Shown piece after piece: positions 556 through 7,809 of a stretch of DNA of 9,422 nucleotides. This DNA is from a virus (taxonomy: Duplodnaviria > Heunggongvirae > Uroviricota > Caudoviricetes): the IMG/VR virus record IMGVR_UViG_2554235187_000005. One strand, given 5' to 3'. The notes beneath the pieces were generated by a model that was not told the DNA's origin, searched no databases, and saw only the letters and a program-made list of their open reading frames with translations. The first letter of the stretch is position 1; the number at the start of each line of letters is the position of its first letter. Made by a program: the position numbers and the translations under genes.

Positions 556-1614
556 GTGCGGGTATTACTTCGACCTGTTCTGGTACCGGAACTTGGGCTG
601 GTGGTGCTAAAACCGGGCCGTGAATCCATGCCGGTATTCCACAATACCCGGGTACTGGTGGAGCCGGAACCGAAAAGCATGCGTAATCTGTCGTCCGGGG
701 TCGTTCCTGCCGTTCGCCAGCCGCTGGCGGAGGATAAATCATTACTGCCATTTTTCAGCGACGAACGAGTGATTCGTGCTGCTGGTGGCGCTGGCGCATT
801 GTCTGACTGGTTACTGCGCCATGTTAAATCCTGCCAGTGGCCACACGGCGATTATCACCACAGTGAAACCGTCATTCACCGTTATGGTACCGGCGCAATG
901 GTGTTGTGCTGGCACTGCGACAACCAGCTGCGCGACCAGACCTCCGAATCACTCGGGCAACTTGCTCACCAAAACCTGTCTGCATGGATGATTGACGTCA
1001 TACGCCATGCAATGAATGGCTCGCAGGAACGGGAATTATCGCTGGCTGAATTATCCTGGTGGGCGGTCCGCAATCAGGTGGCGGACGCGCTACCGGAAGC
1101 GGTATTACGTCGTTCGCTGGGGTTGCGTGCGGAAAAAATCCGCTCAATGTACCGTGAAAGCGACATCGTACCGGGAGAGCAGACCGCCACCAGCATACTG
1201 AAACAGCGCACAAAAAATCTTGCGCCGCTGCCTCACGCCCACCAGCAACAGAACCCACCACAGGAAAAGACGGTGGTCAGCATTGCCGTTGATCCGGAAT
1301 CTCCGGCTCAGTATCTCCAGCGCCAGAAACCACAACGGGAAGAGATGCCTGTATACACGCGCTGGGTAAAAACGCAGAAATGCATGACGTGTGGCAATCA
1401 GGCAGATGATCCGCATCACATCATTGGTCATGGACTGGGAGGGATGGGAACAAAGGCTGACGATTTGTTTGTTATTCCGCTGTGTCGTAAATGCCATAAC
1501 GAACTACACGCCGGGGTAAAAGATTTTGAAGAAAAACACGGTAGTCAGTTGTTGTTGCTGATTCGTTTTTTAATGCACGCGAGAAATTCGGGTGTTCTGA
1601 AGTGGAAAGCATAA
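556..1614 (+). CDS. DUF968-like prophage protein with C-terminal HNH-like zinc-finger motif (YdfU-like)
   Basis: 352-aa ORF with GTG start after GGAGG (546-550); C-terminal motif C-x2-C...HH...C-x2-C-H-x3-H (CMTCGNQADDPHHIIGHG...CRKCHNELH); sits directly upstream of rusA as in Qin/Rac-type prophages (recalled). Confidence 0.6.
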   Translation: MRVLLRPVLVPELGLVVLKPGRESMPVFHNTRVLVEPEPKSMRNLSSGVVPAVRQPLAEDKSLLPFFSDERVIRAAGGAGALSDWLLRHVKSCQWPHGDYHHSETVIHRYGTGAMVLCWHCDNQLRDQTSESLGQLAHQNLSAWMIDVIRHAMNGSQERELSLAELSWWAVRNQVADALPEAVLRRSLGLRAEKIRSMYRESDIVPGEQTATSILKQRTKNLAPLPHAHQQQNPPQEKTVVSIAVDPESPAQYLQRQKPQREEMPVYTRWVKTQKCMTCGNQADDPHHIIGHGLGGMGTKADDLFVIPLCRKCHNELHAGVKDFEEKHGSQLLLLIRFLMHARNSGVLKWKA

Positions 1615-1983
1615 ATGACCGAACGCATAGAATTTGTTTTGCCTTACTCGCCGACGGTGAACACTTACTGGCGACGCCGTGGCAGCACATATTTTGTATC
1701 AAAAGCCGGGGAGCGTTATCGCCGGGCAGTGGCGCTTATTGTTCGCCAGCAGCGACTGAAATTAAGCCTGTCCGGACGGCTGGCAATAAAAATTATTGCA
1801 GAGCCACCGGATAAGCGTCGTCGTGACCTGGACAATATTCTGAAAGCACCACTGGATGCGCTGACGCACGCGGGGTTGTTAATGGACGATGAGCAGTTTG
1901 ATGAAATCAATATTGTACGTGGCCAGCCAGTATCTGGTGGACGGCTGGAGATAAGAATTACAGAGGTGGGTGTGCATGAATAA
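1615..1983 (+). CDS. rusA: Holliday junction resolvase RusA
   Basis: 122-aa product with RusA family hallmarks (NTYWRRRG, DKRRRDLDNILKAPLDALTHAGLLMDDEQ, GGRLEIRITE); start ATG immediately follows upstream stop. Confidence 0.85.
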   Translation: MTERIEFVLPYSPTVNTYWRRRGSTYFVSKAGERYRRAVALIVRQQRLKLSLSGRLAIKIIAEPPDKRRRDLDNILKAPLDALTHAGLLMDDEQFDEINIVRGQPVSGGRLEIRITEVGVHE

Positions 1984-2665
1984 CCAGTATTTACAGTTTG
2001 TTCGTGAGCAACTCATGATTGCCACTGCAGATCTCAGTGGGTCGACAAAATGCCAGCTGGAAGCCTGGCAGGAAAATGCCCTGTTCGATACAGGGCGTTA
2101 CAGACGCAAAAAAATTCGTTACCGCGATGAGGTAACCGGAAAAATGATCACGCGGGATAATCCCCCGATCCAGGGTAAACAATCACTGGCGAAAGGCTCA
2201 TCAATTGCGCTGGTCAGTCCTGTTGAGTTTGCAACATCATCGTGGCGGCGTGCTGTTCTGGAACTGGAAGAACATCAGAAGGCGTGGTTGTTGTGGTGTT
2301 ATGGCGGAAACATTTGCTGGGAGCATCAGATCGCGATAACGCAGTGGGGGTGGAGTGAATTTAAAACTCAGTCCGGCTCCAGAAAAATTGCAGTGAAAAC
2401 GCTGGAGCGTGTGAAGAAGTTGATCTGGCTGGCGGCACAGGATGTCAGAGGATGGGTTACCGGGTGTGAGGTCTACCAGAGACAGGAGCTTGCCAGACTG
2501 TGTGGAGTTAAGCCTGATAACTGGAGCCATAATTATGCGAACTACTGGCGTGAGATGTGCGATATTTTTAAGCGCCTCGATAGAGAATCCTTGATTTGCT
2601 CCGTGAAAATAAGAGCGCAACAAAAAGCGACCTTTTCACGACGAGATATTGCAAAAGTCAATTAA
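1976..2665 (+). CDS. Late-gene antitermination protein Q-like (QuuQ-type size class)
   Basis: 229-aa ORF overlapping the rusA stop (ATG 1976; alternative GTG 1970); position between rusA and a strong intrinsic terminator upstream of the lysis genes is the canonical Q position; family assignment by recall only. Confidence 0.55.
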   Translation: MNNQYLQFVREQLMIATADLSGSTKCQLEAWQENALFDTGRYRRKKIRYRDEVTGKMITRDNPPIQGKQSLAKGSSIALVSPVEFATSSWRRAVLELEEHQKAWLLWCYGGNICWEHQIAITQWGWSEFKTQSGSRKIAVKTLERVKKLIWLAAQDVRGWVTGCEVYQRQELARLCGVKPDNWSHNYANYWREMCDIFKRLDRESLICSVKIRAQQKATFSRRDIAKVN

Positions 2666-2700
2666 ATCGCGTATGTTTCGTATAAATCTGATATTTTGCC
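2657..2700 (+). promoter_or_regulatory. Putative late promoter pR' / qut region
   Basis: Candidate -35 GTCAAT (2657-2662) and -10 TATAAA (2681-2686) with ~18-bp spacer, directly after Q and ~40 bp before the tR'-like terminator; hexamers are weak, position is the main argument. Confidence 0.3.
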
Positions 2701-2726
2701 GATTTTGTACGTGATGGCAAAGTAAG

Positions 2727-2754
2727 AAAAAACCACCGCCAGGTGGTTTTTTTT
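2727..2754 (+). terminator. Intrinsic terminator (tR'-like)
   Basis: Stem CCACC(2733-2737)/GGTGG(2742-2746), loop GCCA, flanked by an A-tract and followed by 8 T's (2747-2754). Confidence 0.65.
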
Positions 2755-2877
2755 ATGTCCGAAAATCGCGTCAGTACAGTAAACGCGCTGGTGGTTGCGA
2801 ATACGGGTCTTTCAGCTTGCCGGCTTTTTCGACAAGAGTTATTGGTATGTCACGTTAACCGGAAAAGGGAAAAAGAC

Positions 2878-3075
2878 ATGCTAAAACAGCAGGATATGAC
2901 AGAAGCCGCCAGAGTGGTGTTTAATGAATTAAGCGTTACCGACCCGGCGACAGTCAGGGAGATTGCACAGAATACTTACCTTTCACGCGAACGCTGCCAG
3001 TTAATACTGACCCAGCTTGTTATGGCGGGTCTGGCAGACTATCAGTTTGGTTGTTACAGACACCTTCAGTCCTGA
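2878..3075 (+). CDS. Hypothetical small protein (65 aa), possible HTH-like
   Basis: ATG 2878 preceded by AAGGGA; the longer in-frame GTG 2743/ATG 2755 starts lie inside the terminator T-tract with no SD; flanked by terminators on both sides. Confidence 0.4.
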   Translation: MLKQQDMTEAARVVFNELSVTDPATVREIAQNTYLSRERCQLILTQLVMAGLADYQFGCYRHLQS

Positions 3076-3089
3076 AGGCTTTTTTATTT
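3063..3089 (+). terminator. Intrinsic terminator
   Basis: Hairpin CCTTCAG/CTGAAGG (3063-3078) overlapping the stop codon, followed by CTTTTTTATTT. Confidence 0.5.
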
Positions 3090-3388
3090 GTGGTAAATGG
3101 GCGGCTGGTGGGTGTGGTGGTTGTTGCTTTCCCGTTGCTGAAAAAGAAAACGCCAGACTGTTAGCCGGGTATCAGTTAGCGGGAGAAATTTTTAAATACT
3201 TCACAATTCAGGCGGTTGACTGTTGTCTGGTTTGCGGGGAGTTTGTTAAAAGAAACTGGCATGGTGAATCCCCCTGTGCGGAGGGGCAATCAGCGAGTAG
3301 GTATATGGGATAATCGCGGATTCAGGTGCTGGTACTGAATTCACCGGGAGGCACCCGGCACCATGCAATGGCACATAGCGCCACTCTC

Positions 3389-3424
3389 CAGCCCCTCTCC
3401 GGAGGGGCTGTTTATATTGATTTT
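3389..3424. terminator. Strong GC-rich hairpin terminator (+ strand; also closes the convergent minus-strand ORF)
   Basis: 9-bp stem CAGCCCCTC/GAGGGGCTG with loop TCCG (3389-3410) followed by TTTATATTGATTTT. Confidence 0.6.
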
Positions 3425-3444
3425 GTCAGATGTGAGTAAACTCC

Positions 3445-3780
3445 TTATGGACTTTGTTGTTTTAGCCCATAAGGACATATTTGCAGAGTGCAACGGTTAT
3501 TAAAGCATTCATTCAATACGTTATCTGTATTTGTAGGGCATTCCTGGCTGTTTTTGATTAAATTCCAGAATGTTTTATTGAATGGTACTACGTTGTAAAT
3601 GGTTACAGGTAGCACTTTGTTATTGAGCATGATACCTGTGTGAGTCAGTGTAAATATACTTTCAGGAGGTAAGAAAGCATCCGATTGATACCAGATTATT
3701 AATTTTATTTTACTCCATATGACTGAAAAAGATATTCCGCATGATGGCTGGATAACTGTATCAATCACAATCCACTTCAT
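3445..3780 (-). CDS. Hypothetical protein (111 aa), Cys-containing, encoded on an AT-rich island
   Basis: Minus-strand ORF with SD AAGGAAA ~6 nt upstream of ATG (rc of 3781-3795); opposite orientation to the late operon; terminator hairpin just downstream of its stop. Confidence 0.5.
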
Positions 3781-3820
3781 TTAGTTTCCTTGTTTATGCC
3801 TTGCTGGTGATGTTCTGAAA

Positions 3821-3846
3821 AGTATAAATGATATTTTTGATTGTAA
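3821..3846 (-). promoter_or_regulatory. Putative sigma70-like promoter for the minus-strand moron gene
   Basis: On the minus strand, TTACAA (rc of 3841-3846) and TATACT (rc of 3821-3826) in an AT-rich tract upstream of the 3445..3780 ORF; spacing is short (~14 nt), so weak. Confidence 0.2.
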
Positions 3847-4040
3847 ACCATAGAGCAGAATTATTTTTCTGATGTTGTTTATTGTTTATTTAAATGCAGG
3901 GTGGTTTATATCTCGTCTTGTAGTTTATCCATGCATATCTGCTTGATGATGAGGTTTTTATTTAAGGTATGGTTTTGTGTTTTTTCTGTATTACATGTCA
4001 GGTATTTTAAAGAATCATTTTTCAGATGGTGGAAAGAACC

Positions 4041-4229
4041 ATGGCATTTAAACACTATGATGTTGTCAGGGCGGCGTCGCCGTCAGATCTTGCGGAAAAG
4101 CTGACACATAAACTGAAAGAGGGCTGGCAGCCGTTTGGTAGTCCGGTGGCCATAACCCCTTATACCCTGATGCAGGCGATTGCAGCAGAAGGTGATGTGG
4201 TGGTCAGTGGTGCAACTGAGCCGGAGTGA
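4041..4229 (+). CDS. Small conserved prophage protein found upstream of holins (DUF1737-like)
   Basis: ATG 4041 preceded by GGTGGAAAGA; 62-aa product MAFKHYDVVRAASPSDLAEKL...; family assignment by recall. Confidence 0.5.
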   Translation: MAFKHYDVVRAASPSDLAEKLTHKLKEGWQPFGSPVAITPYTLMQAIAAEGDVVVSGATEPE

Positions 4230-4536
4230 TACTACGTCATCGTACTGGCCCGGCATTCCAGGCCATAAAAGACGGTCTGGCAGTGGGACTAAATGCACTG
4301 ACGCTGACGGATATTACCAAAAATGCAACGTATGGCGTTGAGATAGAAAGTCTGGTGCTGGAGATAAATGCACCGGCATCATCATAAAAAGTGAGCCAGT
4401 CAAATGGAAGGTATCGTTAAACTCACCGGTAGTGTCAGTGGGTCGTCTGAGACGCCTGCATGAGTTATCAGAGCCATCAGTACTTAACTGGTGGCTTTTT
4501 TATTGTTGTCAGCTTCCGGATAACGGGAGACGGGGT

Positions 4537-4752
4537 ATGTACCAGATGGAAAAAATCACAACAGGTGTGTCATACACCACGTCAGCGGTGGGAACGGGCT
4601 ACTGGTTCCTGCAGTTGCTGGACAGGGTTTCCCCGTCTCAGTGGGCGGCAATAGGCGTGCTGGGGAGTCTGCTGTTTGGGCTGCTGACATATCTGACTAA
4701 CCTGTATTTCAAAATCAAAGAGGACCGGCGTAAGGCGGCGCGGGGAGAGTAA
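4537..4752 (+). CDS. S: Phage-21-type pinholin (class II holin) with dual-start motif
   Basis: 71-aa product [71 protein letters not shown] closely matches recalled S21 pinholin; Met1 and Met4 starts. Confidence 0.85.
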
Positions 4753-4756
4753 AGTG

Positions 4757-5647
4757 ATGAATAAAAAATATGAACTGGTTGTTAAGGGGATAAATAATTA
4801 CGGGGATAAGGTTACTGTTACTGTGAAGTCGGAAGGTGACGGGCAAGCGTCGCTGTTGTTGCCAGATGTGGCGATTAGTCTTGACCGTACTGAAGGTGCC
4901 ACGCTGGAGTTTTACGAAGCTGAGGCGAAAAAGCAGGCGAAGCAGTTTTTCATGGATGTTGCTGCCGGGTTATGTGAATGGAACGAACCGTTGCCGGAAA
5001 AGCGCCCCGTAATTTTAGAGGCGCAGGATGTGTTGATAACCTACAAAGGAAAGCTACCGGGAAGAATTACTTGTTCTCTGAAGATGCCGCCGTCAACACT
5101 GCGGTCAGAAAAAGATGATGTTGAATCACGTATTGAAAAACTGGAGAGCTACGTCGTTGAGCTGAATAAGAAATGGTCGATATTGGTGCCTTCTGGCGAT
5201 GAAAAGCAGTTTGCTGCGTTTGACGATTATTGTCGGAAAGTGATGAGCAGAAATCTCGCAGAGTGTTTCAGTATTCATAATGATAATTTCAGTGACCCGG
5301 AATGGGAGTGTAACCGGCCATCCTTTGTTGTATCCGGTGATGCTGGGAAAATAACCATCTCAGAAAATGGGAAAGTAACACCTCCATCGCACCAGCACAG
5401 TGAGGAGCTCATTGAATTTGCCATTGATTACCTGAAGAACAATAAAAAGCAGGGGCTGATGAAGCGCGTTGGCCGTTGCATGGGATATCTTCAGGTAGCC
5501 GCTGAGATTGAAGCGCTGGCCAGTGGTGCTGATAAGGATGCAATTGTGCGGGAGGCTCTTCTTCGTGATTTTAATACTCCACCCTTTAAAAAAGTGCCGG
5601 CTTACTGGCTTCATCCGGGGCTGACTTATCTTAAAGTGCGTATTTAG
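4757..5647 (+). CDS. Unknown-function protein (~296 aa) inserted between holin and endolysin
   Basis: ATG 4757 (GTG 4754) starts 2-5 nt after the holin stop with GGAGAG SD; long clean ORF, no TM segments, predicted coiled-coil-like stretch (DDVESRIEKLESYVVELNKKW); no family recognised. Confidence 0.7.
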   Translation: MNKKYELVVKGINNYGDKVTVTVKSEGDGQASLLLPDVAISLDRTEGATLEFYEAEAKKQAKQFFMDVAAGLCEWNEPLPEKRPVILEAQDVLITYKGKLPGRITCSLKMPPSTLRSEKDDVESRIEKLESYVVELNKKWSILVPSGDEKQFAAFDDYCRKVMSRNLAECFSIHNDNFSDPEWECNRPSFVVSGDAGKITISENGKVTPPSHQHSEELIEFAIDYLKNNKKQGLMKRVGRCMGYLQVAAEIEALASGADKDAIVREALLRDFNTPPFKKVPAYWLHPGLTYLKVRI

Positions 5648-5683: not shown

Positions 5684-6217
5684 ATGAACACCAAAATCAA
5701 ATACGGCCTGTCGGCTGCCGTTCTGGCGCTGATTGCCGCTGGTGCGCCTGCGCCTGACATTCTCGACCAGTTTCTGGATGAAAAGGAAGGCAACCACACC
5801 ACGGCATACCGTGATGGTGCAGGTATCTGGACCATCTGCCGTGGTGCCATCATGGTGGATGGCAAACCTGTCGTTCCGGGCATGAAGTTGTCGAAGGAAA
5901 AATGCGACCAGGTTAACGCCATTGAGCGTGATAAAGCGCTGGCGTGGGTGGAGAAAAACATCAGAGTGCCGCTGACCGAACCCCAGAAAGCGGGGATCGC
6001 GTCATTCTGTCCGTACAACATTGGTCCCGGTAAGTGTTTCCCGTCGACGTTTTACAGACGAATTAATGCTGGTGATCGAAAAGGTGCCTGCGAAGCGATT
6101 CGCTGGTGGATTAAGGACGGTGGCAGAGACTGCCGTATTCGTTCAAACAACTGTTACGGTCAGGTATCCCGTCGTGACCAGGAGAGCGCGCTGGCGTGCT
6201 GGGGTATCGACAGATAA
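5684..6217 (+). CDS. R: SAR endolysin (T4-lysozyme-like, R21-type)
   Basis: N-terminal Gly/Ala-rich weakly hydrophobic SAR segment (GLSAAVLALIAAGAPAP) followed by an E-x8-D-x5-T catalytic triad (EGNHTTAYRDGAGIWT). Confidence 0.85.
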   Translation: MNTKIKYGLSAAVLALIAAGAPAPDILDQFLDEKEGNHTTAYRDGAGIWTICRGAIMVDGKPVVPGMKLSKEKCDQVNAIERDKALAWVEKNIRVPLTEPQKAGIASFCPYNIGPGKCFPSTFYRRINAGDRKGACEAIRWWIKDGGRDCRIRSNNCYGQVSRRDQESALACWGIDR

Positions 6218-6305
6218 GCAGAATATTTTGCTGAAAAATGAGGAATGGCCACGCGGGCGGATAACACGAAATCCTGCGAACTGGCGAAACGTAAGTGAAT
6301 AAAAG

Positions 6306-6350
6306 TAAAAACCCCGTTTGTTGGCACCAAGCGAGGTTTTGTGTTTCTGA
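6306..6350 (+). terminator. Terminator-like structured element after the endolysin gene
   Basis: Imperfect stem AAAACCCCG/CGAGGTTTT enclosing a mini-hairpin TTGG-CA-CCAA, followed by a T-rich GTGTTTCTG; weak. Confidence 0.25.
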
Positions 6351-7172: not shown

Positions 7173-7482
7173 GTTTTGTTGATGCGCCGTATCGTCGCTA
7201 TATTCCCTCATTAACAGAGACCGCAGCCCGACAGGGAGACTCCTCTGCGCGAGTGTGCGGGGATAATTAAAAACGATGCACACCGGGTTTTTACCGCGTT
7301 AATGATTCGCGGGTTTATCCCGGTGCGATGGTGGAAGAAACAGGAAGCTGTATTACAGAAAGTGCTACTACTGTATCCCGATGCGATGTATGTAATGTGA
7401 GTCAGATAATGGCACAGGATGTGGTGATGTGGCAGTCTGGAACACAGGATATATTGTCAGAATAAGACCCGTAGGAATAAAA

Positions 7483-7809
7483 ATGAAAAGACGCCTTTTA
7501 CTACTTTTTCTGTTATCTGTCCTGGCAGTGGGATGCTCGCAGCAAAAAGCTGATGAGCCCCGGCAATTAGTGACGGTGTATCCACGATATCCGGAATATG
7601 CTGCAGCAAATTATATCAAGGGGCTGGTTGAGGTTAAGTTCGATATTGGTGCTGATGGGACTGTGACACGGATCGTTTTTCTCCGCTCAGAGCCTCATAA
7701 TTTGTTTCGTGATGAAGTGGTGAAGGCCATGGCGAAATGGCGATTTGAAAAGAATCGCCCCTGTCAGGGAGTGAAGAGACAATTTATCTTTACGCCGTCA
7801 CGTCCTTGA
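7483..7809 (+). CDS. Lipoprotein with TonB C-terminal-like domain (phage moron)
   Basis: SD AGGA 6 nt before ATG; signal peptide plus lipobox LAVGC; mature part matches the TonB-CTD pattern (YPxYPxxA...G-V-V-KFDI--DGTV--I--L-S-P---F--EV--AM--WRF). Confidence 0.6.
   Translation: MKRRLLLLFLLSVLAVGCSQQKADEPRQLVTVYPRYPEYAAANYIKGLVEVKFDIGADGTVTRIVFLRSEPHNLFRDEVVKAMAKWRFEKNRPCQGVKRQFIFTPSRP

Follow-up and report, generated by a model that had tools for sequence, protein, structure and literature searches.

The anti-adaptor gene iraL in an AT-rich island of a lambdoid prophage late region

The small protein IraL was obtained by Hryckowian et al. (2014, mBio) from a screen for factors that raise RpoS, and was found to bind RssB and to stabilise RpoS in log-phase growth; deletion of iraL lowered the log-phase half-life of RpoS from about 5 to about 2.5 min, and RpoS stability returned when iraL was supplied under its own promoter (-100 to +33) (PMC4045071). 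The IraM protein (YcgW) of E. coli K-12 is of the same family and fold, with 62-63% amino acid identity to IraL, and keeps the four C-terminal cysteines and most of the RssB-contact residues. The two are described as distinct in regulation and binding, with IraM being induced by Mg2+ starvation in a PhoP-dependent manner and binding both domains of RssB, whereas IraL acts in log phase and contacts the RssB N-terminal domain only (PMC4045071, PMC10844676). IraM is in turn related in fold to PmrD (PMC10844676), the PhoP-activated connector which protects phospho-PmrA, and IraL likewise has the beta-barrel-plus-helix fold of PmrD (TM 0.70-0.74). Both PmrD and IraL are small binders of a response-regulator receiver domain, but PmrD is only about 15% identical to IraL, is without the four-Cys tail, has another target and is not prophage-borne.

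The iraL locus of the uropathogenic E. coli strain CFT073 was named the 'potB genomic island' (PMC4045071), and its annotation shows a complete lambdoid prophage. The known morons of lambdoid late regions (bor, lom and stx) resemble iraL in being expressed in the lysogen from promoters of their own, in their deviant GC content and in being present in some phages and missing from related ones; iraL differs from these in that it opposes the late operon, has a 3' end region in common with an sRNA gene and lacks a dedicated terminator. Here we describe how these systems compare with a stretch of 9,422 nucleotides from a Caudoviricetes record (IMG/VR IMGVR_UViG_2554235187_000005), referred to below as the window.

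Identity of the gene opposite to the late operon

A first-pass annotation of the window, made from the sequence alone, had described an AT-rich island between the Q module and the lysis genes, with a gene on the minus strand for a 111-aa Cys-containing protein with its own Shine-Dalgarno sequence. Such an ORF is indeed present (3445-3780, five Cys, AGGA at 3790-3787; Table 1), and the homology and structure searches that had been proposed for its product placed it in the IraM/IraL/RssC anti-adaptor family (NF007393, 8TWD). Its translation is residue for residue that of CFT073 IraL, with RefSeq accession WP_000871291.1 at both loci (gene C_RS06710, old tag c1429, in CFT073), and the two coding sequences are separated by two synonymous differences (99.4% nucleotide and 100% amino acid identity). 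For this identical protein, RssB binding and a longer RpoS half-life have been reported in CFT073 and S. sonnei (PMC4045071). Many E. coli chromosomes contain a 100% identical copy of the 801 bases around the ORF, which in these is labelled 'anti-adapter protein IraM'. Consistent with family membership, the protein scores 162 bits with NCBIfam NF007393 ('anti-adapter protein IraM'; cut-off 121) over residues 1-110 of 111, and also matches PHROG 4407 over its full length (3e-73) and PDB entry 8TWD, which holds IraM residues 1-78 with RssB (E 9e-32). No Pfam family matched the ORF at E <= 0.1; precomputed tables give PF11183 (PmrD) for its relatives, and for the ORF itself the link to PmrD was recovered solely via the fold search.

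IraL was told apart from IraM by at least 95% identity to CFT073 iraL together with the iraL promoter and 5' UTR, and the window ORF has the coding sequence identity, the promoter and the 5' UTR of iraL. The K-12 iraM gene aligns with the window only at the coding sequence (3461-3782, 71% nucleotide identity), with promoter and flanks being unrelated, which agrees with a regulation of iraM that differs from that of iraL. An identification as K-12-type IraM sensu stricto was thus rejected, as outside the coding sequence there is no similarity to the K-12 locus, and since the K-12-type regulatory region is absent, the RefSeq name 'IraM' is here a family name and does not designate the K-12 orthologue. 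The idea that K-12 iraM is a fossil of the same cassette was also dismissed, given that the DNA aligns in the coding sequence only. The dN/dS ratio was 0.12 against the paralogue of Stx2c phages and 0.18 against K-12 iraM, and as judged from these comparisons the ORF is under purifying selection.

The gene is therefore one that is already known: it is iraL, encoding a characterised anti-adaptor which keeps the stress sigma factor RpoS from being degraded. We consider it highly probable (about 0.9) that the island as a whole represents an iraL cassette carried by a lambdoid prophage, and that IraL stabilises RpoS in the lysogen via RssB. The first-pass annotation had seen the gene as a lysogen-expressed moron in the Q-to-S slot, bringing virulence, exclusion or defence cargo; the former part stands, while the cargo is a host stress regulator without a PADLOC match. 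A role in exclusion or anti-phage defence, for which the position and orientation of the gene would be typical, is very improbable, with PADLOC reporting no family at E <= 0.1, with the product being a characterised anti-adaptor for which a homologous complex has been solved, and with the gene encoding a lone small cytoplasmic protein with no partner gene.

Table 1. Features of the iraL locus and its surroundings, in window coordinates.
Feature	Position	Strand	Details
DUF968/HNH gene	556-1614		lambdoid late-region context
RusA gene	1615-1983		lambdoid late-region context
Antiterminator Q	1970-2665	+	PF06323, 2e-82; left end of Q-to-S slot
STnc100-family sRNA gene	3230-3419	+	Rfam RF02076, 132.4 bits (gathering score 47); model 1-206, full
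Intrinsic terminator hairpin of sRNA	3389-3410	+	9 bp, 7 G-C; T-run 3411-3425 on plus strand
iraL cassette (moron)	3420-4038		roughly 620 bp, from sRNA T-run to nanS-p/DUF1737 start codon; absent from iraL-less phages
iraL CDS, RssB anti-adaptor of IraM/IraL/RssC family	3445-3780	-	111 aa, ATG start, five Cys
iraL 5' UTR	3781-3813	-	33 nt; AGGA Shine-Dalgarno 3790-3787, 6 nt before ATG
iraL sigma-70-type promoter	3821-3847	-	-10 TATACT 3826-3821; -35-like TTTACA 3847-3842; 15-nt spacer
PhoP-box-like direct repeat TGTTTATTGTTTATTTA	3876-3892	+	-63 to -79 from iraL start; lead only
DUF1737 ORF, 5' remnant of NanS-p-type sialate O-acetylesterase gene	about 4026/4041-4229	+	PF08410, 4e-17; right flank of cassette
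Class II (phage 21-type) holin	4537-4752	+	PF04971, 2e-32; PGAP annotation in strain 7/2; right end of slot

Base composition, boundaries and distribution of the cassette

The surroundings of iraL are the late region of a lambdoid prophage, which also comprises lysozyme, Rz/Rz1, a TonB_C lipoprotein and the small terminase, and no tRNA genes were found in the window. The low GC content of the island, which had been noticed by eye, is confirmed by calculation (0.322 versus 0.496 elsewhere). The GC content of positions 3411-4025 lies about 5.5 standard deviations under the mean of the 615-bp windows outside the island (mean 0.496, sd 0.032, minimum 0.434), with that of the whole 9,422 nt being 0.486, and of all 615-bp windows in the sequence, the one beginning at 3408 has the lowest GC content. 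In 200-bp windows, GC ranged from 0.30 to 0.375 across 3401-4100 and from about 0.45 to 0.59 in the flanks. Within the island, the iraL ORF has a GC content of 0.345 and the 245 bp upstream one of 0.294, and codon bias, which had been suggested as a further check, deviates likewise, with a GC3 of 0.34 in iraL compared to 0.42-0.68 in eleven neighbouring genes.

Alignment with other phages delimits the cassette to about 3420-4038, almost exactly the extent proposed from the letters. Phage 933W is homologous through the sRNA terminator, which is followed by a stretch of about 230 bases without relation to the window, and its homology restarts exactly at the esterase start codon (ATGGCATTTAAACAC, window 4041), while phage JLK-2012 is 97% identical in the flanks and lacks window positions 3376-4038; both phages have the sRNA and the nanS-p start in common with the window, and miss about 3420-4038. 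The ORF on the right-hand side matches residues 1-55 of a 645-aa esterase encoded by phage 1717 with 91% identity, and is flagged as incomplete by PGAP; where JLK-2012 has TGG, the window has a TGA (4227-4229), and the remainder of the esterase gene is gone from the window. As for other morons, the cassette is a discrete insert between conserved phage sequences with a deviant base composition, and has its own promoter as placed by the mapped start, with no terminator on the minus strand.

The CFT073 locus is 99% identical to the window over 3200-4450, including the transcription start site, the sRNA and the DUF1737 remnant, and its iraL gene occupies the same slot, from Q to the holin of a lambdoid prophage. 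The left flank in CFT073 differs, with another Q type, three tRNAs and an IS200, and homology begins only at window position 3104. Among complete E. coli genomes, about 1,415 of 5,426 have iraL at >=95% identity, in line with the conservation of the ORF which the first-pass annotation had required, and up to four family copies were present per genome. The whole 3300-4100 stretch was found in 1,429 genomes, and this close agreement with the approximately 1,415 iraL records means that iraL is essentially always in the same context. Beyond Escherichia, the family has 94 representatives at 50% clustering, the named ones being from Salmonella, Citrobacter, Enterobacter, Kosakonia, Intestinirhabdus and Dryocola.

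The suggestion that stx occupies the same slot in other phages is also supported, as a paralogue lies right after stx2B in Stx2c and Stx2a phages. The Stx2c phage 1717 is homologous to the window over all of 3201-4198 (about 70%), with the gene order Q, stx2A, stx2B, IraM-like gene on the opposite strand, nanS-p esterase and holin. Its gp43, and the corresponding genes of phage 2851 and the Stx2a_WGPS phages, are IraM-family genes which share orientation, STnc100 and the nanS-p neighbour with iraL; unlike iraL, gp43 is directly downstream of stx2B, has an intact nanS-p gene beside it and encodes 107 aa. This Stx-phage paralogue, which is 74% identical to IraL in amino acid sequence, accounts for 41 of the 46 matching phage records and is present in 236 of the 5,426 complete E. 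coli genomes, mostly O157:H7 among the matches listed. No experimental study of the gp43 family was found in the literature.

Promoter and transcription of iraL opposite to the STnc100 sRNA

In CFT073, iraL transcription has been detected in the uninduced lysogen in mid-log phase by 5' RACE (PMC4045071), and the gene is upregulated by 1.6 log2 when the temperature is raised from 23 to 37 C (PMC12890032) and has higher mRNA levels in a fur mutant (PMC7157518), so that the lysogen expression predicted by the first-pass annotation has support from both 5' RACE and RNA-seq. The published 5'-RACE sequence ACATCACCAGCAAGGCATAAACAAGGAAACCA (CFT073, PMC4045071) aligns to the minus strand of the window from 3813 with one mismatch. 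The first-pass annotation had noted a candidate promoter for the gene, and relative to the mapped start there is a TATACT at -13 to -8 and a TTTACA at -34 to -29; phage 1717 keeps the -10 element as TATAAT. A consensus promoter scan missed the iraL promoter because of its 15-nt spacer, and the promoters that the scan did report, at 3888-3860 and 3729-3702, were discarded as incompatible with the mapped start.

Within the region from -100 to +33, the window differs from CFT073 at three of the 133 nucleotides (-1, -28 and +31), and the difference at -28 adjoins the -35 hexamer. We infer that the window copy would be expressed as strongly as that of CFT073 despite these three differences. It could also be that iraL is intact here but silent or near-silent in the laboratory, and would act only upon a specific cue (37 C, low iron or low Mg2+, for instance), with a promoter variant, the short spacer, H-NS silencing or interference by the convergent sRNA and late transcripts as possible causes. 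DNA such as the 29%-GC region upstream of iraL is a usual target of H-NS silencing, and this low upstream GC (0.29), the promoter differences and especially that at -28, and a PhoP-box-like repeat at -63 to -79 would all fit with a silent copy. So would the finding that CFT073 iraL is regulated (37 C, fur) and not purely constitutive, and the flagging in the IraL paper of a -35 variant of unknown activity, a point mutation in the second iraL copy of strain JJ1886 (PMC4045071). Against this, the -10 element, Shine-Dalgarno sequence and start codon are all intact in the window, the 45-mer around -28 is of the window type in 796 genomes and of the CFT073 type in 308, and neither this commoner promoter type nor the purifying selection on the coding sequence would be expected for a dead copy; we consider a silent or near-silent copy unlikely. 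The PhoP-box-like repeat itself has one mismatch to KGTTTA-N5-KGTTTA, and a match of this quality arises in 5% of shuffled versions of the upstream region; the aligned site of phage 1717 (CGTTTATTCTTTGTTTA) matches the PhoP box equally well, with the mismatched position falling in the opposite half-site. The repeat is borderline, is not significant on its own, and is given as a lead only.

The hairpin at the 3' end of iraL, which the first-pass annotation took for the terminator of this gene, has to be reassigned. Its T-run is on the plus strand only, and it belongs to an STnc100-family sRNA which that annotation overlooked; hairpin and T-run correspond to positions 176-206 of the RF02076 model. 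The stem at 3389-3410 can also form on the minus strand, but there it is followed by GGAGAGUGGCG, without a U-tract in the direction of iraL, and no terminator-like sites were found on the minus strand in 3050-3450. The hairpin is 100% conserved in phage 1717, and a diverged equivalent is present in 933W, a phage without iraL. A comparison with JLK-2012 had initially pointed to a hairpin moving together with iraL, but this was ruled out by the Rfam search on JLK-2012 and the alignment with 933W, which make JLK-2012 the odd one out for the hairpin.

The sRNA converges on iraL, with 25 nt between the sRNA end and the iraL stop codon, and a convergent pair of STnc100 and an anti-adaptor gene is also present in CFT073, phage 1717 and phage vB_EcoS-640R1; no STnc100 was found beside K-12 iraM. 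STnc100 has been described as a prophage sRNA downstream of stx2 and near esterase genes, which is related to PasD and has an unsettled function, and iraL and iraM are not mentioned in either of these papers (PMC12370729; bioRxiv 10.64898/2026.05.13.724894). From the arrangement of the genes, iraL transcripts would run antisense into the STnc100 gene, and Q-modified late transcription would, on induction, run antisense through iraL.

This arrangement also bears on the question whether the phage itself is the main beneficiary, in that a rise in RpoS, or an action of IraL on another response regulator, would tune lysogen maintenance, induction or the outcome of superinfection, and IraL would be a regulator of the phage life cycle and not a fitness factor of the host. 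The cassette is always in the late region, antisense to Q-dependent transcription and convergent with the sRNA, so that induction should run over it, paralogues are found directly after stx2B in inducible Stx phages, and the fold is common to PmrD, another receiver-domain binder. However, K-12 iraM works from a decayed locus without surrounding phage functions, and the published phenotype is RpoS stability in unstressed growth (PMC4045071), both of which make a primary benefit to the phage improbable.

RssB contacts, the cysteine tail and wider meaning

An AF2 model of IraL built on 30 diverse homologues predicts a core of residues 1-78 with a pLDDT of about 87-97, consisting of seven strands (residues 2-66) and one helix (69-77); an earlier run with 13 close homologues had a mean pLDDT of 63. 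In a Foldseek search with this model against the PDB, the best match was IraM of the RssB complex (8TWD_A, TM 0.90, rmsd 1.3 A), with PmrD (4HN7) coming next. In the structure of IraM with RssB, the contacts have been grouped into three clusters (PMC10844676). Cluster I (I4, I6, W22, K26, I42), which faces the RssB N-terminal domain, is identical in IraL at all five positions, while in cluster II, facing the C-terminal domain, three of the five residues are identical and two are conservatively replaced (T13S, C14, F18, L75I, W30), and in cluster III, facing the linker, two of four are identical (I61, Y62, H63N, I64V). [quoted passage not shown]

These comparisons suggest a mechanism by which sigma-70 RNA polymerase would start at 3813 on the minus strand in the lysogen, against the direction of the Q-dependent late operon and without relying on it, and the PmrD-like beta-barrel of IraL (residues 1-78) would bind the alpha4-beta5-alpha5 face of the RssB receiver domain. 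The RpoS-binding face of RssB would then be occluded and RpoS not be handed to ClpXP, which would stabilise RpoS in exponential growth and leave the general stress response pre-armed. By analogy with the IraM complex, occlusion of the RpoS-binding face on RssB is the most likely mechanism for IraL.

The C-terminal part of the protein is marked by a conserved set of cysteines (C81-x10-C92-x4-C97-x4-C102, in a CP...CPYG context). Among 30 family members with 20-63% identity, C81, C97 and C102 are invariant and C92, P82 and P103 nearly so, with all four C-terminal cysteines being invariant in 15 closer family members; down to 20-40% identity, only the four cysteines, M1, P12 and W72 are invariant or nearly invariant. 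This tail was dropped in the crystallography of IraM, where it was called flexible and less conserved (PMC10844676), and cysteines or zinc are not discussed in that paper or in Battesti et al. 2013. In the AF2 model the Cys-rich tail of IraL has a predicted pLDDT of 50-60, and the model thus supports no claim of a metal site.

The cysteine tail could be a module, either Zn(Cys)4 or redox-sensitive, which sets the stability or activity of IraL. Furthermore, as iraL has no terminator of its own and STnc100 ends 25 nt away, mutual interference of transcripts may occur, and iraL read-through, the sRNA and Q-dependent late transcription could interfere in such a way that the anti-adaptor is switched off at induction. 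Taken together, IraL may be a sensor within a two-gene convergent unit and not a plain constitutive inhibitor, a joint reading which we put forward tentatively and hold to be rather doubtful. The paralogue just after stx2B could also account for the high log-phase RpoS in EHEC without iraL. The leads that remain, namely the four-Cys tail, the convergence of sRNA and iraL and the Stx-phage clade, are modest ones.

The finding mainly confirms known biology. In practical terms, it shows that the RefSeq label 'IraM' masks the differently regulated IraL, and that what was described as a genomic island is a moron cassette of the lambdoid late region, physically coupled to a prophage sRNA and present in about one quarter of complete E. 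coli genomes. A temperate phage carries a small RpoS-rewiring protein in the slot that holds the Shiga toxin genes, and a sister clade of IraL rides on the Stx2 phages themselves.

Immediate surroundings of iraL

The minus-strand gene iraL, which encodes the RssB anti-adaptor, faces a full-length STnc100-family sRNA (features are listed in the table), with only 25 nt separating the 3′ end of the sRNA from the iraL stop codon. The same convergent pair of STnc100 and an iraL-family gene was also present in E. coli CFT073, in the Stx2c phage 1717 and in phage 640R1. The sRNA was absent from the first-pass annotation of this region.

Further to the left, homology to the CFT073 prophage starts only at position 3104, within the remnant of a DUF3927 gene, so the Q antiterminator module and the iraL/lysis module are joined here by a mosaic junction. 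The stem-loop just after Q looks like the short pR′-tR′ transcript of the late promoter, of the lambda 6S or StxS type, and Rfam matches over it (isrK, STnc370 and RNAI) were below threshold. On the right side of iraL, the esterase stump is 91% identical to residues 1–55 of the 645-aa NanS-p enzyme, and has TGA in place of TGG at 4227–4229, with the rest of the gene deleted.

Features of the iraL region, the late region and related loci
Feature	Position	Strand	Remarks
Stem-loop flanked on either side by T-runs, AAAAAACCACCTGGCGGTGGTTTTTT	2670–2756	+	Just after Q
110-aa ORF	2743–3075	+	After Q; PHROG 331, weak winged-helix matches
Segment beginning inside the DUF3927 gene remnant	3104–3230
STnc100-family sRNA	3230–3419	+	Rfam RF02076, 132 bits
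Four-Cys tail of IraL	3445–3537	-	Residues 81–111; cysteines conserved across IraM/IraL family
Substitutions versus CFT073 iraL promoter/leader	3841 (-28), 3814 (-1), 3783 (+31)		CFT073 version mapped experimentally
PhoP-box-like direct repeat, TGTTTATTGTTTATTTA	3876–3892	+	-63 to -79 from iraL start site
5′ stump of NanS-p sialate O-acetylesterase gene ('DUF1737 protein')	4041–4229	+
Predicted 126-aa lipoprotein	7429–7809	+	Lipobox LAVGC, TonB C-terminal domain
K-12 iraM region	3681–5108 of K-12 locus
Third-clade IraM/IraL family gene	6001–6324 of phage 1717 locus		74% identical to IraL, 107 aa

Promoter and C-terminal tail of iraL

Around -28, the sequence variant of the window is the commoner one (796 genomes, versus 308 with the CFT073 type), and is possibly, but not necessarily, the same change as the '-35 mutation' described for iraL2 of JJ1886. 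The PhoP-box-like repeat is borderline by shuffling (5%), and the aligned position in phage 1717 holds a PhoP-box-like site of equal match quality.

The cysteines of the IraL tail (CP-x9-C-x4-C-x4-CPYG) belong to the best-conserved positions of the whole IraM/IraL family, even at 20–40% identity, and possibly form a metal or redox site. AlphaFold2 confidence is low over this tail, and the IraM crystal structure was made without it.

Related loci and a second candidate moron

The third-clade gene lies directly after stx2B, on the opposite strand, in Stx2c and some Stx2a phages, and was present in 236 of 5,426 complete E. coli genomes, mostly O157:H7 among the matches listed; our literature search found no experimental study of it. 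In K-12, iraM is located just beyond the annotated end of prophage e14, and after it comes ycgX, a ydfO-type DUF1398 gene known from lambdoid prophages. This arrangement suggests that the locus belongs not to e14 but to a second, decayed prophage, although the K-12 iraM region aligns with the window only in the iraM coding sequence.

The TonB_C lipoprotein gene is flanked by Rz and the small terminase gene, the site where lambda carries bor, and on the basis of this position is likely to be another moron.
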